Below, piece after piece: positions 2,184-50,002 of a stretch of DNA of 50,002 nucleotides; positions within the stretch are counted from its first letter, which is position 1, and each line of letters starts with the position of its first letter. The notes under the pieces are model-generated. The model searched no databases, had not been told where the DNA came from, and saw nothing but the letters and a program-made list of their open reading frames with translations. The translations under genes and the position numbers were made by a program. The DNA comes from Shigella phage phiL: sequence record PP134913; one strand, written 5' to 3'.

Positions 2184-2592
2184 TTGTCTATACCTCGTTG
2201 TCTACGGGCGTAACTTGCCGCCCCGAAAAACATGTTACAGCAACCTGGCTAGGCGCGTCAATGTCTATAGCTGCATTTTTTATTTTTGTAACCAGTGCAA
2301 CCGATGCAACCGACTTTTTATATAAAAGTACACACATCCATTTCGACGCGTGGAATAGTATGTTTTTTATACTATGCACCATGAAATATATGCCACCCTC
2401 CAAAAATGCGGTTGCACCTATTACGCCGATTACATGCCAATATATAATATAATAAATAAATAAATATATATTATCTATCTTATTATTATATATAGATATT
2501 TTAGTATAGTTAGGCTCATCCCTTCGAGGCCATTTTGTAACACCCATGATAGTATACAACTATTACGACAATTACAACGACAATATAGACGG

Positions 2593-2610
2593 ATAGCACT
2601 TTTTGCTAAA
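2593..2610 (+). promoter_or_regulatory. motif copy in divergent control region
   Basis: ATAGCACTTTTTGCTAAA. Confidence 0.4.
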
Positions 2611-2796
2611 AATGGAGATGGCTACCAGGCGAGCCGGGTAACACTAAATCCTCCCTCTCACAATCATTGCATTCTCATCAACAAATCAACCAACTGTTGC
2701 ACACCATGCAATAATCACGTTTCATCATTCGAGATCAATCGGGATCGCAATTATTCCACATATTCCAGTATTGATGGAATAATGAGCAATTATTGG

Positions 2797-2816
2797 AATA
2801 GCATTTTTCGCTAACG
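2797..2816 (+). promoter_or_regulatory. motif copy immediately upstream of methyltransferase-like gene start
   Basis: AATAGCATTTTTCGCTAACG ending 9 nt before ATG 2825. Confidence 0.4.
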
Positions 2817-2824
2817 ACTTAGCT

Positions 2825-5686: not shown

Positions 5687-6112
5687 GTGAACGCAATGAA
5701 ATCCATCAAACTTAAATGTACTTCCGCAGACAAAATCACAGGATTTGAAGTTAACAACCTGTACAAAGGTCGAGAGCGCTACGATGGCACTCGTGAGGTT
5801 AAGTTAAAGTGCGGTAAGTATTTAAAACTTGATAAGCATGATGAATTACAGATTCACGGATCTGATGAAATCTTCTTCGCAAAATTCACTGAACTTAAAA
5901 CAAAAACACTCAAGTGTACCGGGCTTGACCATCGCAACCCAATGAAAAAATCATTCAAAGTTGGCAAGCGTTACCAGGTGGAAAGCGGTCGCGCTCTCGG
6001 TGGAGTGGCTGGTTACATCTTTGATGAGGACGGTTGCCGCTGGACATTATTCCGCGAAGAGGTTGGTTTTAGTATTGCTGACGGCACAACCTTTGAGGCC
6101 AAATACTTATAA
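5687..6112 (+). CDS. hypothetical protein (141 aa)
   Basis: RBS CAGGAGTG; promoter element 5615..5659. Confidence 0.5.
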   Translation: MNAMKSIKLKCTSADKITGFEVNNLYKGRERYDGTREVKLKCGKYLKLDKHDELQIHGSDEIFFAKFTELKTKTLKCTGLDHRNPMKKSFKVGKRYQVESGRALGGVAGYIFDEDGCRWTLFREEVGFSIADGTTFEAKYL

Positions 6113-6114
6113 CC

Positions 6115-6159
6115 AATAGCACTTTTTGCAAAACGCGTGTACCATTGGCGGTGTATCAT
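6115..6159 (+). promoter_or_regulatory. conserved promoter-like element
   Basis: AATAGCACTTTTTGCAAAA ... TATCAT in hairpin CGGTGT/ACACCG. Confidence 0.5.
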
Positions 6160-6188
6160 TCACACCGTCAACTAAGGAGTTTATTGTG

Positions 6189-7757
6189 ATGTTTAATATT
6201 AAGCCAAAACTGAATTACCAACAGATTATTGAGATCGCAAATAGCACTGGAGTGAATCCGGTGGCGATCGCAATTCGTGAAAACAGTTACGGGGATTCAG
6301 TTTCTTTTTGGCAAGATCCGATCGATATCAACAGCGGAAACGATAAGTTCCCTCTGATTTCGTTAGGTGGCGATAACCTGGTATTCGAATATGCAAAAGC
6401 AAAAGCTGAATCAGTCCAGTTCCCGGTTTCATCCGCGTATGCTCATTTTATCGGTTGCATATCAGCCGCGATGCTCGGGAAGTTTTGGGTGCAATATCAT
6501 GGAGAAGAACAGCCGACAGCGCTTTACATGGTAATTAGTCAGCCACCATCAACAGGTAAATCAGCGATTAACTCAGCGGCGATTACACCTATGCGTGCGG
6601 AGATTCAGCGACTGAATGAAGAGCGCAAAAAGGAACGTATCCGTTTAACCAGTCAGCTACGTCAGGTCGAGAAGGAAATAAAAAACGATCCGAAGGGTAA
6701 CACGACGGCGGCTCTGTACGAGGACAAAGAAAAACTGGAAGAGAAGATCAAGAAGATGGCTGATATTGTTTTCGCGGTATCAGATCCTACACCTGAAGGT
6801 CTTGCGAAAGTGGCGGCAGTGCAAGGTCACTTTTCCGTAATATCTGACGAGGCAACGGCAATCAATACATTGCTCGGGCTTACGTATGGCGGTTCAGATA
6901 AGAAATCTAACAGTGAGCTTATCCTTAAGGCGTGGGATAAAAACCATATGGAGGTCGCGCGTTCAAATCAGGACAACAACTTATCTCTTTGCCCGGTCGG
7001 TTCGATCTGCGTCATTGCGCAGGATGAAACAATCAATGGTATCATGGATGCAGGCCAGCGAGGTATCGGTGTATCCGAACGTTTCTTGTTGGTTCGCGAG
7101 GAGCCGCTTTTAGGTACTCGTATTCTTTGTGATGAAAATGGCGATGCGCTGTATAAGGAAGTCGATCGAGGATTGGTTAGTAAATATTATCGACTCGTGC
7201 ACAACATCATGAAGGAGGACAACGTTGTTCTCTCTGTGAGCCGTAATGCTATGCGTGAATTAAACCTTGCTCGCCAGGAGATGGAGCCTGATTTCGCTGC
7301 CGGGGGGAAATACTCTCACTCAATGCTTCGCGGTCATCTCGGCAAGTTCGATAAGCACGCTTTGCGTATTGCTTCAGTTCTCCACACGATCAAGAATTGG
7401 GAGGGTGAATCACCGAACCGTTCCAACCGTGAGATTGACCTTGAAACAATGCAGGAAGCGATCATGATCTTCAATGAGCTTTCCAGGACTTATCTGTCGT
7501 CTGCCAGCGCTGCCGGGTATGCTGGTGATGAGGCTGAATCTCGTAAGCTGATTGATGTTATCACTGAGATCGCGAAGAAGAACAAAGGCCGCGCACCTAT
7601 TCATAGTATTGTTGCAAAGTGCCGGAACGTTACGCCGTTCAACGGTCAACAGAAAGTATCTGAGCGAATCGACAGCCTTCTGATTACGCTCGAAGAGATG
7701 AACTACACTTGCCGAATTGATGATATTGTTTTCATCAATCCTCGACTGATGGGTTAA
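6189..7757 (+). CDS. P-loop NTPase, function unknown (523 aa)
   Basis: Walker A-like QPPSTGKS and Walker B-like VIAQDE; AAGGAG RBS before ATG 6189; promoter element 6115..6159. Confidence 0.55.
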   Translation: MFNIKPKLNYQQIIEIANSTGVNPVAIAIRENSYGDSVSFWQDPIDINSGNDKFPLISLGGDNLVFEYAKAKAESVQFPVSSAYAHFIGCISAAMLGKFWVQYHGEEQPTALYMVISQPPSTGKSAINSAAITPMRAEIQRLNEERKKERIRLTSQLRQVEKEIKNDPKGNTTAALYEDKEKLEEKIKKMADIVFAVSDPTPEGLAKVAAVQGHFSVISDEATAINTLLGLTYGGSDKKSNSELILKAWDKNHMEVARSNQDNNLSLCPVGSICVIAQDETINGIMDAGQRGIGVSERFLLVREEPLLGTRILCDENGDALYKEVDRGLVSKYYRLVHNIMKEDNVVLSVSRNAMRELNLARQEMEPDFAAGGKYSHSMLRGHLGKFDKHALRIASVLHTIKNWEGESPNRSNREIDLETMQEAIMIFNELSRTYLSSASAAGYAGDEAESRKLIDVITEIAKKNKGRAPIHSIVAKCRNVTPFNGQQKVSERIDSLLITLEEMNYTCRIDDIVFINPRLMG

Positions 7758-7761
7758 TTAT

Positions 7762-8169
7762 ATGCTTCTTCTTTTAGATCTGTTCAGGTTCTGCGAAGGT
7801 TACGACAAATACACTCGTCAGCACATAGCGAAATTTATATACGCCCACAAGGAAAGTGAGCGATTTGCTAAGGCCGCCGGGATGACTCACCGTGAATTTA
7901 CAAGCGCGCTATCTAAGGAGTTTTGCGCTCGTTGCGTTACTGATGGTTACTTGGATCGTAAGGATGGATTTTACTGGTGCAAGGGAAAGATCAAGCGCCC
8001 GGTAATGATGAAGCTGATGTGTATTGATGGCTACAACAATCGATATACGTGGGAAATGATGCATATTGGAGAAATGAGTGATGAGGAATTGTTTGGCGAA
8101 CGTAGAAACGTTGATAGATCGGAACGTCGAATTGTGCGCAAGACTCCAGCTTACGAAAGAAGAATTTGA
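7762..8169 (+). CDS. hypothetical protein (135 aa)
   Basis: Last ORF of plus early block before terminator 8284..8307. Confidence 0.4.
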   Translation: MLLLLDLFRFCEGYDKYTRQHIAKFIYAHKESERFAKAAGMTHREFTSALSKEFCARCVTDGYLDRKDGFYWCKGKIKRPVMMKLMCIDGYNNRYTWEMMHIGEMSDEELFGERRNVDRSERRIVRKTPAYERRI

Positions 8170-15299: not shown

Positions 15300-15752
15300 A
15301 TGAATATGCAACGTATCGCAGAGTCAACTGGTGAAATCGATAAACGTCACATTAATGGTAACAACGGAACGCGACGCGGTAAAGACAAAAAGCCTCGCCA
15401 GCGCTGCGGCTTCTATATTCATAAAGAAGAAACACGAGCGGGACTGCGAGCGCGACTTGACGCTCTTATTGAATATTACGGCGGCCCAGCGGCCTGCGCA
15501 AAAGCTCTGAAGGTTAGCAATCAGACCGTGCAAGGATGGAAAGATCGCAACATGATTTCGTGGCAAGGTGCTGAAGCTGCGCATCGTGCTTACCGCCGTC
15601 AGGGGTGTAAAGGATTCCGCGCCGCATGGCTGCGATTCGACCTGAAGTTTGACGGTAACGGAAAATGCCTTGAGAAGAGATGCAAGAATAAGAAATTTAT
15701 GCGCGTCGTGAAGAAGGAAGATATCGGAACGACCAATAGCATTTTTAGTTAA
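15300..15752 (+). CDS. Cro/YdaS-like HTH DNA-binding protein
   Basis: GGPAACAKALKVSNQTVQGWKDRN HTH resembling YdaS/Cro family; AGGAGA RBS; own sigma70-like promoter. Confidence 0.55.
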   Translation: MNMQRIAESTGEIDKRHINGNNGTRRGKDKKPRQRCGFYIHKEETRAGLRARLDALIEYYGGPAACAKALKVSNQTVQGWKDRNMISWQGAEAAHRAYRRQGCKGFRAAWLRFDLKFDGNGKCLEKRCKNKKFMRVVKKEDIGTTNSIFS

Positions 15753-20908: not shown

Positions 20909-20939
20909 TGTGTTTATCTCCTTCGTTTACGATGGATTC

Positions 20940-20967
20940 ATTATAGCCATTAACAGCGTTTAGTCAA
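20940..20967 (-). promoter_or_regulatory. sigma70-like promoter TTGACT-N16-TATAAT for exonuclease/Erf/SSB block
   Basis: Near-consensus hexamers on minus strand about 30 nt upstream of ATG 20908. Confidence 0.6.
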
Positions 20968-21376
20968 CCTGATACATGTAATTGGTGTGTAATAGCGTGT
21001 CTATATCGCTCAAGTTACAACCAGCATTAACAGAATCAATGGCTTAAGTATGTTTTTATGTTATGTCTATTGTGTAATGCTTGTAACCGCTTTTTCTTAG
21101 AAATGCAGAGATACCTACAAATGGAATCCAGATTGATTAAATTTTGAACATATATGATAGAGGTTTGACGAATCAATCAAATCACCTGTTACACGATAGA
21201 CAACTGTTACACAACAATAATTATATATATAAAGCTAAAATTAAATATTATCTATCTATATATATTATATAGAGTTTTTATCATATCTCTCTGCTGTCGG
21301 ATGTGGTGGATTTTGTAACACCCGCTCCGGTTACAAAAATAGACACCTGTTACACGAAAAAATTGTAATAGTGCTA

Positions 21377-21405
21377 TTGCAATAAAAGTAAATGCGACAT
21401 ACAAT
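21377..21405 (+). promoter_or_regulatory. sigma70-like promoter TTGCAA-N17-TACAAT for lipoprotein gene
   Basis: Hexamers with 17-nt spacer about 25 nt upstream of start. Confidence 0.55.
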
Positions 21406-21434
21406 GCAATTACACTAACGACGAGGACATGCAA

Positions 21435-49515: not shown

Positions 49516-49684
49516 CGCAAGTGATTTCATTTGATGTGATTGGTAGCAATACGTTTCCAACCATCACGAAAGTAGTAACCTGGTTTCCGGTTTCATGGCA
49601 TCTCTCTTTTACCTCTCCGCAGCCGGACACTACCATGATAGCCAGGGCGACCGCCGCCATCATGCAAATCAGAATGCGCATCAT
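49511..49684 (-). CDS. small lipoprotein (57 aa)
   Basis: Signal peptide MMRILICMMAAVALAIMVVSGC with lipobox; GGGAG RBS. Confidence 0.5.
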   Translation of the reverse strand: MMRILICMMAAVALAIMVVSGCGEVKERCHETGNQVTTFVMVGNVLLPITSNEITCE

Positions 49685-50002
49685 TCGAACGCTCCCGCAC
49701 ACAGTAGTAACATGATTACGATCCCAACAATGGCATGACCCATGCAGAAGAACCAGACGGCAGACCATAATGCAATCGTGTTGAAGTTCATTTCAGTACC
49801 TCGATCTTGTTGTCGCCGATTGAGTTTTCTACTACCGATTGCGGGTCATCGCCAGGAACGCGCATGTAGAAATTACTCACCGCCGTGAAGTTCCATTGAC
49901 CGCGCCACTTGAAATAGACTCCGTGTTTTGCGCCCATTGCGTAGTGAGTGGATTTTGCCGGGATCATGTGCCCGTTAACGCGGGTTAGTTGAGTTAGGTT
50001 GC
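49672..50002. repeat. Wrap-around overlap, copy 2 (genome unit length 49,671 bp)
   Basis: Matches 1..331; A at 49798, 49834, 49875 where copy 1 has C. Confidence 0.9.
49788..50002 (-). CDS. partial second copy of 117..344 ORF (runs off window end)
   Basis: Overlap duplicate; carries the three C-to-A differences. Confidence 0.4.
   Translation of the reverse strand, partial: NLTQLTRVNGHMIPAKSTHYAMGAKHGVYFKWRGQWNFTAVSNFYMRVPGDDPQSVVENSIGDNKIEVLK

Follow-up and report, generated by a model that had tools for sequence, protein, structure and literature searches.

Paired AT-rich intergenic modules of the T1-like Shigella phage phiL as candidate replication origins

We analyzed the DNA of Shigella phage phiL (sequence record PP134913; the window is the whole stretch of 50,002 nucleotides, one strand, 5' to 3') and found that 2 intergenic regions of this T1-like phage (Tunavirus, Drexlerviridae) carry paralogous copies of a noncoding AT-rich module, copies that are best read as marking T1-like replication origins. 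Region A extends from 2184 to about 2875 and is flanked by a leftward gene for a protein of 191 amino acids (aa) and a rightward methylase gene; region B (20909-21428) is flanked by recE (exonuclease VIII, leftward) and cor (rightward). We read the 2 modules as phage replication origins or origin-like unwinding sites of the iteron-plus-unwinding-element type, at a probability of roughly 0.4. The reading is built on what can be observed directly, namely, the anatomy of the modules, their paralogy, the pattern of selection on them, the instability of their duplexes, and their conservation throughout the family; that a protein binds the modules, which protein this is, and that they act as origins we infer. 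T1 belongs to the seven classic T phages and is notorious as a contaminant of laboratories and fermentations; to our knowledge, neither its replication origin nor its early control sites have been mapped. In recent genome papers on the T1 family, no origin or iterons were found (PMC11447400, PMC7718038), and our literature searches for a mapped origin or a transcript map of the family returned none.

The copies were recognized by 2 shared words. The 12-mer TATTATCTATCT occurs at 2469-2480 and 21246-21257, on the same strand, and nowhere else in the genome, and the 14-mer ATTTTGTAACACCC, starting at 2532 and 21310, is confined to these 2 sites, again on the same strand; it is the full form of the shared word TTTTGTAACACCC (2533-2545 and 21311-21323). 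The distance from TATTATCTATCT to ATTTTGTAACACCC is 63 bp in A and 64 bp in B, in the same orientation. Measured from TATTATCTATCT to ATTTTGTAAC in phiL and its relatives, all B modules (16/16) and 4/5 A modules have a spacing of 64 bp; the exception is phiL A, with 63 bp, the 1-bp shorter spacing of A being peculiar to phiL. A sequence-only reading of this DNA had proposed a module at both sites, which we confirm, with its coordinates in A one base off; the equal internal spacing that it described is nearly correct (64 bp in A and 65 bp in B, start to start, from TATTATCTATCT to TTTTGTAACACCC), and the gap of "about 68 bp" between the words is in reality 52/53 nt. A gapped local alignment of A with B runs from TTACA(T/C) through the AT-rich part and scores 59, compared with 24-28 (standard deviation [sd] 3-5, maximum 48) for shuffles that keep local composition, none of which (0/1000) reaches 59; the similarity is thus beyond that expected from AT-richness.

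Each module is built in the order short repeats, core of about 75 bp and about 90% AT, spacer of fixed length, box, and further repeats; the cassette, put at roughly 90 bp before, measures about 160-170 bp when the flanking repeats are counted. The elements of module A are listed first and those of module B second, none of them being assigned to a strand.

2418..2436: left flanking repeats A, CTATTACGCCGATTACA; direct repeat of 2560-2578
2437..2511: AT-rich core A (AT content 91%), with TATTATCTATCT at 2469-2480; lowest duplex stability of all 80-bp windows in the genome
2512..2531: variable spacer A, 35% AT; diversity 0.165; length 1 nt off that of four relatives
2532..2545: box A, ATTTTGTAACACCC, containing TGTAACA; diversity 0.029
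2560..2578: right flanking repeats A, CTATTACGACAATTACAAC; diversity 0.036

21185..21212: left flanking repeats B, CCTGTTACAC and ATAGACAACTGTTACAC; partly in the 91-bp block of low diversity
21197-21287: that block, 91 bp, comprising the ATAGACAACTGTTACAC repeats and core B; diversity 0.011
21213..21287: AT-rich core B (AT content 88%), with TATTATCTATCT at 21246-21257; second lowest duplex stability of all 80-bp windows
21288..21309: variable spacer B, 22 nt; diversity 0.191; length fixed, rate about neutral
21310-21323: box B, ATTTTGTAACACCC; diversity 0.010 (measured over 21310-21322)
21310..21338: stretch holding a 9-bp dyad, TTTTGTAAC at 21311-21319, a 10-nt loop, and GTTACAAAA at 21330-21338; the box is the left arm
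21323-21329: dyad loop; diversity 0.298
21330-21356: right repeats B; diversity 0.037
21339..21355: right flanking repeat B, ATAGACACCTGTTACAC; 16/17 identical to 21196-21212

Direct repeats thus bracket both cores, CTATTACGCCGATTACA (2418) and CTATTACGACAATTACA (2560) in A and ATAGACAACTGTTACAC (21196) and ATAGACACCTGTTACAC (21339) in B; the dyad is found in B only, and A has just its left arm. Region B was aligned from 16 Tunaviruses, with diversity computed across 15 of them, and the neutral baseline of that comparison is given by the third codon positions of recE (diversity 0.210). The alignment of region A comprises the five phages that share phiL's A allele, and it repeats the pattern of B: diversity is 0.029 in repeats and core, 0.165 in the spacer, and 0.029 in the box, the value for synonymous sites being 0.219; the invariant block here spans 2395-2511 and includes the CTATTACGCCGATTACA repeats. 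Cores and boxes are near-invariant across related phages and spacers near neutral. Given the diversity of the individual blocks and the 64-bp spacing, the shared words are the constrained ends of a larger module, the middle spacer of which is free in sequence and fixed in length. Because A and B have entirely different spacers and flanking repeats, the pair reads as an old paralogy maintained by selection and not as a recent duplication.

Both cores are exceptional in helical stability. With nearest-neighbour energies computed in 80-bp windows, cores A and B reach -72.4 and -75.5 kcal/mol, respectively; the genome mean is -108.0 (sd 5.8), and the window ranked third has -89.0. They are the 2 least stable windows in phiL, T1, TLS, and AV106, lying more than 5 sd below the mean in these genomes (core energies of -69 to -78 kcal/mol; means of -106 to -108 ± 6; next window at -87 to -89). 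Two hallmarks of iteron-type origins are therefore present in both A and B: short repeats on both sides of an AT-rich region, and an AT-rich DNA unwinding element of low helical stability.

The short motifs of the modules are likewise concentrated in the 2 regions. All genome copies of TGTTACA/TGTAACA (6/6; binomial 2e-10) lie in A or B, in phiL and in T1, as do 10/24 copies of GTTACA/TGTAAC (1e-10) and 6/7 copies of ATAGACA/TGTCTAT (1e-9) in phiL. The last motif is located at 2185, 2262, 20998, 21064, 21196, and 21339; its occurrence in B is joined to the TGTTACAC repeat, one of the copies in A directly adjoins the -35 of the leftward promoter-like site described below, and T1 has ATATACA where phiL has ATAGACA.

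The exact pair of words is found once, in B, in most Tunaviruses and twice only in phiL, AV106, SH6, DELF2, and Chapo. A gapped two-motif scan of viral contigs returned 15 true module matches on 13 Tunavirus contigs, two of which (SH6 and DELF2) carry both copies, and 8 other matches that are due to chance; nearly all matches of an exact 14-mer scan of viral contigs arose by chance. A search for satellites or prophages found no copy of either module in E. coli genomes or plasmids. Positions 1608-2592, which take in the 191-aa gene together with the left two-thirds of region A, are an alternative allele that elsewhere in the phage collection is present only in AV106, SH6, DELF2, and Chapo. At the same position, T1 has an unrelated gene, likewise of 191 aa, and, although the T1 and phiL alleles differ, both retain the arrangement of a promoter-like site, a triple 9-bp repeat, and an AT core.

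Beyond the exact words, the architecture recurs with other sequences. Region A of T1 is not alignable to that of phiL by BLAST; the T1 A and T1 B modules, in the same gene orientation, nevertheless align with a score of 66 (shuffle maximum 45), and T1 A carries ATTACGCC repeats, an AT core, and the related box ATTTTGTATACGA. An inverted orientation of the T1 A module, prompted by the ATTACGCC repeats, was considered and rejected, as the same-orientation scores of 66 and 61 beat those of 36-48 for the inverted one. TLS belongs to a different subfamily and has an A/B pair of its own (score 63, shuffle maximum 34), with ATCCGGCGTA in both modules and nowhere else in TLS; A and B also both hold ACAAAAAGAACAAA, CTATATAATA, and GTGAACA/GGAACA repeats oriented oppositely to the left and right of the core. 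Its B module lies between the co-directional genes tspJ and recE, directly after the tail-fibre terminator, and the module is therefore independent of a strand switch or divergent promoters; the location between diverging gene blocks, as previously described, holds in phiL but not as a general rule. We compared 23 non-redundant representatives from across the family, with RecE identities of 42-99%. The AT-richest window of 80 bp upstream of recE has an AT content of 75-88% in 23/23, and the AT maximum lies 256-313 bp upstream of recE in 21/23. In the representatives inspected, the AT core is accompanied by genus-specific repeats (opposed GAACA/AAACA in the TLS-like phages, GATTACA in L140, and GTTACAC in Tunavirus) and followed by a box-like element, AATTTTACGCCGG and variants, AATTTT(A/G)CGCC.

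No conserved open reading frame (ORF) covers the modules, the mechanical ORFs 2188-2559 (minus strand) and 21252-21434 (minus strand) being broken by indels in relatives, and the modules show no sign of conserved protein coding. Region B of T1 has an annotated 46-aa coding sequence, CPTT1_049 (phiL 21036-21176, minus strand; L001 2628-2768). It is absent or frame-shifted in phiL, AV106, and several other Tunaviruses, its variable columns lack codon periodicity, and it is probably not a gene. The claim of a duplicated cassette that coding features do not explain is thus borne out, the cassette being noncoding and under strong selection. As to host factors, region A and region B contain no DnaA boxes and no GATC cluster (0 sites in B and 2 in A, both outside the module), and one consensus for integration host factor is located at 21034, outside the module. 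Cumulative GC and AT skew follow the direction of transcription only; GC skew is dominated by transcription and is uninformative on the location of an origin.

The two-sided repeats, the unstable AT core, the dyad, and an architecture that is conserved although the repeats change from genus to genus are what points to an iteron-type origin design. In the mechanism that we propose, a phage-encoded initiator would bind on both sides of the core, at the TGTTACAC or ATTACG-type repeats and at the box, with the fixed 64-bp distance holding the bound sites in register; the unstable AT core would then melt, allowing a helicase to load itself, the phage primase (15813-16748) would prime, and the host polymerase would elongate. 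A later switch to RecE/Erf-dependent replication would yield the concatemers for headful packaging. The best candidate for the initiator is the following gene, the DUF3987 protein presumably acting through its winged-helix domain, or else an adjacent small helix-turn-helix (HTH) protein.

6126..7757, plus strand: candidate initiator gene, DUF3987 (Pfam, 2e-42) and PHROG "DNA helicase" (phrog_2373); a putative role

The DUF3987 proteins have been proposed to be replicative helicases of superfamily 6 (SF6), similar to MCM and with a C-terminal winged helix (PMC4889955), and helicase activity has been demonstrated for the family (PMC11724360). A sequence search for solved structures related to the phiL protein returned none. 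The ORF is listed from a TTG codon, with 543 aa, and the orthologs in T1 (522 aa), TLS, and L258 have 521-526 aa; the true start is probably about 21 codons downstream (excess of 6126-6188), with identity falling in the first ~21 residues. phiL also encodes a zinc-ribbon primase, a single-stranded DNA-binding protein, RecE/Erf, and small HTH proteins, and it encodes no DnaA-type initiator. One of the HTH candidates, the RipR-like p141 (5687-6112, plus strand), is encoded just upstream of the DUF3987 gene; another is an HTH protein of 135 aa, encoded at 7762-8169. Comparison with L258, a relative with GATTACA instead of GTTACAC origin-like repeats, showed that the N-terminal 50 residues of p141 are 34% identical and the C-terminal part 95%, and that the helicase is 38% identical in its first 50 residues, 60-72% in its last 93, and 68-94% in between. 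This terminal divergence of helicase and p141 is a suggestive lead, with p141 as a candidate specificity determinant.

Several observations weigh against origins. The origins of lambda and of the Staphylococcus aureus pathogenicity islands (SaPIs) sit next to or inside the initiator gene, whereas the DUF3987 gene is 3.3 kb away from module A and 13 kb away from module B, which adjoins recE rather than the gene of an initiator. Two origin copies in a 50-kb genome are unusual, though T4 and T7 have several, and near-total sequence invariance over ~90 bp of AT-rich DNA exceeds what a simple unwinding element needs. The flanking repeats of the Tunaviruses are mostly direct, not opposed, and cumulative GC skew has no inflection at module B of TLS. 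TGTTACA over a promoter -10, and the resemblance of ATAGACAmCTGTTACAC to a -35 plus spacer, fit a role in transcription, and the packaging site pac has been placed in region A of TLS and T1 (PMC11447400, PMC7718038).

Transcriptional control is the main rival reading, though we think it less likely than origins. It would make TGTWACA, the TTTTGTAAC-N10-GTTACAAAA dyad, and the ATAGACA-CTGTTACAC units operators or activator sites of a phage regulator, such as the Cro/C2-like protein encoded at about 15.3 kb (about 15300-15752) or a RipR-like HTH protein, that would switch the early promoters of both regions on or off together, much as O_L and O_R of lambda have operators in common; the AT core would be bent or UP-like DNA or a factor-dependent promoter. 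The promoter-like sites of the 2 regions are listed next, together with a repeat array in region A.

2232..2261, minus strand: promoter-like site of the leftward 191-aa gene, TTGACG-18-TAACAT; 9/12 match, putative promoter
2288..2314, no strand: three tandem 9-bp repeats, GTAACCAGT GCAACCGAT GCAACCGAC; invariant in 5 phages, diversity 0.000
20940..20967, minus strand: recE promoter-like site, TTGACT-16-TATAAT, near-consensus sigma-70 (11/12); annotated in relatives; outside the module
21377..21405, plus strand: cor promoter-like site, TTGCAA-17-TACAAT; diversity 0.009; outside the module

The palindromic TGTTACA at 2233-2239 overlaps the -10 of the leftward site in A (CATGTTACAGC, the single site recorded in the earlier reading, is indeed present at 2231-2241), and the T1 analogue, TTGACA-16-TAACAC, has two inverted TGTWACA around the start. 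In region B, CCTGTTACAC falls within the spacer of TAGACA-18-TGTAAT (annotated as a promoter in a relative), a promoter scan of phiL gives a weak TAGACA-16-AATTAT at 21197, and ATAGACA-CTGTTACAC resembles a -35 plus spacer. A short palindrome, which in B belongs to a 9-bp dyad whose 10-bp loop is free, is typical of the operators of dimeric HTH proteins, and a -10-like CTATATAAT, read by eye from the sequences, is conserved in the cores of phiL, T1, and TLS. Against control, the promoter scan found no acceptable sigma-70 -35/-10 pair inside either AT core, box and core of the module overlap no credible promoter, and the strong promoters P_recE and P_cor are about 90-270 bp from the module edges. 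An operator needs no invariant 75-bp AT block that is the genome's extreme in duplex instability; the B module of TLS follows a terminator between co-directional genes, the divergent placement holding in phiL and T1; the regulator's own promoter region has no TGTWACA; and the motifs differ between genera, whereas the architecture is constant. Of the "regulatory cassette" described before, the duplication thus stands, and the regulatory role is not established, given cores that lack a good sigma-70 promoter and a TLS B module located away from a strand switch. The cores being the least stable duplexes and the flanking repeats being iteron-like, an origin-type element is a better fit than a promoter cassette. 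In plasmids, Rep proteins initiate at iterons and regulate themselves through inverted half-sites, and the sites in phiL may similarly double as operators, as the overlap of TGTTACA with the leftward -10 in A would suggest; the origin and operator readings are not mutually exclusive.

Two further observations concern these features. The three repeats of 2288..2314 comprise GTAACC at 2288 and GCAACC at 2297 and 2306, a triple that is unique in the genome; the three GyAACC repeats noted earlier therefore exist, at 2288/2297/2306 and with a regular period of 9/9 bp rather than 8-9 bp, and T1 has 3x CGATTAACA at the equivalent place. The TTGACT hexamer of the recE site is visible in the distant genera inspected.

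A site for packaging or another DNA transaction, that is, a platform for the small terminase (pac-type) or a hotspot for RecE/Erf recombination, strikes us as quite improbable. In P1 pac and SPP1 pac, a bendable centre has repeats on its flanks, and the two-sided repeats and AT-rich centre of the phiL modules resemble P1 pac. The location of pac in region A has been proposed for TLS and, by homology, for T1-like phages (PMC11447400, PMC7718038). The start of the TLS record is about 155 bp away from the A box, region A is also where several Tunavirus records are cut, and module B adjoins recE, erf, and ssb. However, the packaging series of T1-type phages begins at one pac only, and the module is present twice; the authors of the TLS study assign pac to AGATTT, outside the module; and B, 19 kb away from region A, is also distant from the terminase genes.

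We regard as very improbable that the modules are a recombination scar, or the product of recent gene conversion between AT-rich intergenic regions, and have no function of their own. The phages do encode an active recombination system, and the 12-mer and box in region A are limited to phiL, AV106, SH6, DELF2, and Chapo; identity is nonetheless restricted to the blocks under purifying selection in each copy, with spacers and flanking repeats wholly different, the T1-type region A retains the architecture and the related box ATTTTGTATACGA although it cannot be aligned by BLAST, and the A/B pair of TLS is built on different sequences. The least credible alternative, a small RNA or an R-loop primer of the kind known from T4 oriF/oriG or the T7 origin, transcribed rightward through the core and ended by a spacer hairpin and the U-run of ATTTTGT, could call on short GC stems that can be drawn in both spacers ahead of TTTT and on the weak rightward promoter-like TAGACA-16-AATTAT (21197-21224) ahead of core B, but this structured-RNA reading is largely refuted by a consensus fold of -4.6 kcal/mol with 0 compensatory pairs in 14 distinct sequences, weak folds from alifold of spacer and box on both strands of both regions, no Rfam match in the whole window, no terminator call in B or at the A spacer, no matching promoter to the left of core A, and a spacer that evolves at about the neutral rate.

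Returning to the origin reading, a more specific version is that the modules are a previously undescribed composite origin in two paralogous copies, in which a sequence-specific AT block of ~90 bp and a box of 13-14 bp would be read jointly across a neutral spacer of fixed length, with genus-specific iterons and with the MCM-like, self-loading DUF3987 helicase and a small RipR-like HTH specificity factor as the reader, the copies, 19 kb apart and equally oriented, acting as a pair. We consider this version rather unlikely; under it, the paired copies might fire sequentially or might loop to couple the start of replication with the switch of early transcription. The type of origin is known, whereas these modules, their duplication, the composite layout, and the conservation throughout the family are absent from the papers searched. 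Even if the origin reading holds, its mechanism would be unsurprising to specialists. The analysis provides two precise candidate sites of about 170 bp each, with sub-elements and a signature of selection, for the start of T1-like replication, and nominates the DUF3987 helicase and the small HTH proteins as proteins of interest; if the reading is true, the sites would offer a handle for engineering T1-like phages or for blocking their replication.

Region A also holds copies of a separate repeat. Published work on T1-like phages describes an intergenic 21-nt direct repeat of consensus aaATAGCACnnnTTGnTAAAA, oriented along transcription and located about 76 nt before the start codon (PMC11447400), and the 2 motif copies recognized earlier in region A are real copies of it.

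2593..2613, plus strand: 21-nt repeat copy ATAGCACnnnTTGnTAAAA, a full match to the core consensus; outside the duplicated module
2798-2817, plus strand: degenerate 21-nt repeat copy, a relaxed match; 78 nt before the probable methylase start, ATG 2876

Both belong to the published repeat family and the AT-rich module does not; with 15-18 copies genome-wide, the repeat is a separate element and not part of the duplicated module. The relaxed form ATAGCAC-N3-TTGyTAAA has 18 copies, for example, at 696 (-), 1435 (-), 3981 (+), 44606 (-), 46181 (-), 48248 (-), and 49514 (-). A -10-like TAnnnT, usually TATAGT, starts exactly 38 nt after the start of the repeat in 10/18 copies and 39 nt after it in one more; the start of TAnnnT is 22 nt after TTGyTA and often inside a hairpin whose stem sequence varies between copies. 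The combination of 21-nt repeat and TAnnnT looks like a non-canonical, factor-dependent class of promoter. The TLS paper lists the function of the repeat as an open question (PMC11447400).

The methylase ORF is listed from ATG 2825, and relatives begin at the ATG equivalent to 2876; region A thus probably extends to 2875, with the methylase start at ATG 2876. In T1 and TLS, the equivalent of region A is the point at which the linear record was opened. The window itself is a complete T1-like genome of about 49,671 bp, the nearest relatives of which are Tunavirus phages of the family Drexlerviridae. Positions 1-300 recur at 49672-49971 with 99% identity over 300 nt, and this overlap of the ends means that the assembly is circularly closed or terminally redundant and represents a single genome of about 49,671 bp.

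The modules can be compared with several known systems. As in O_L/O_R of lambda, the paired operator regions that govern divergent early transcription, the same short dyad-type motif is confined to two control regions, with one copy over a promoter-like -10; unlike lambda, phiL is virulent and has no adjacent repressor gene, its motif arrays surround a large AT core, and the TLS B module is located away from divergent promoters. The T7 origin combines the phi1.1A/B promoters with an AT-rich region. phiL shares with T4 and T7 a lytic lifestyle and, on the proposed reading, several origins and a later change to recombination-dependent replication, but there is no convincing promoter into phiL core A and no indication of an R-loop transcript. 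With T4 oriF/oriG, the likeness is that of an intergenic AT-rich unwinding element beside a promoter-like sequence (PMC3016281). Module B also resembles ori-lambda (four iterons, an AT-rich region, and a palindrome) in its order of repeats, AT segment, and inverted repeat TTTTGTAAC-N10-GTTACAAAA. However, ori-lambda lies inside the initiator gene O and needs O/P and host DnaB, whereas phiL is without O/P homologues and has repeats on both sides of the core, and the authors of the TLS study found no lambda-type iterons in the helicase gene (PMC11447400).

In the origins of SaPIs, iterons on both sides of a central AT-rich region are bound by self-loading Rep helicases of superfamily 3 (SF3) or SF6 via a winged-helix domain (PMC9371898). 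The phiL modules share with the origins of SaPIs and other phage-inducible chromosomal islands (Ubeda et al. 2007, as summarised in PMC9371898) short repeats of 5-8 bp on both sides of a central AT-rich region, an encoded SF3/SF6-type winged-helix helicase and primase, and the lack of DnaA boxes, and TLS-like phages have at least 2 repeats per side in opposite directions. They differ in their distance from the helicase gene, in the presence of two copies per genome, in a near-invariant core of about 75 bp, in the extra 14-bp box at a fixed 64 bp, and in repeats that are mostly direct. If the origin reading is true, the paradigm of a self-loading MCM-like helicase acting on an iteron origin would extend from staphylococcal satellites to a family of virulent enterobacterial phages.

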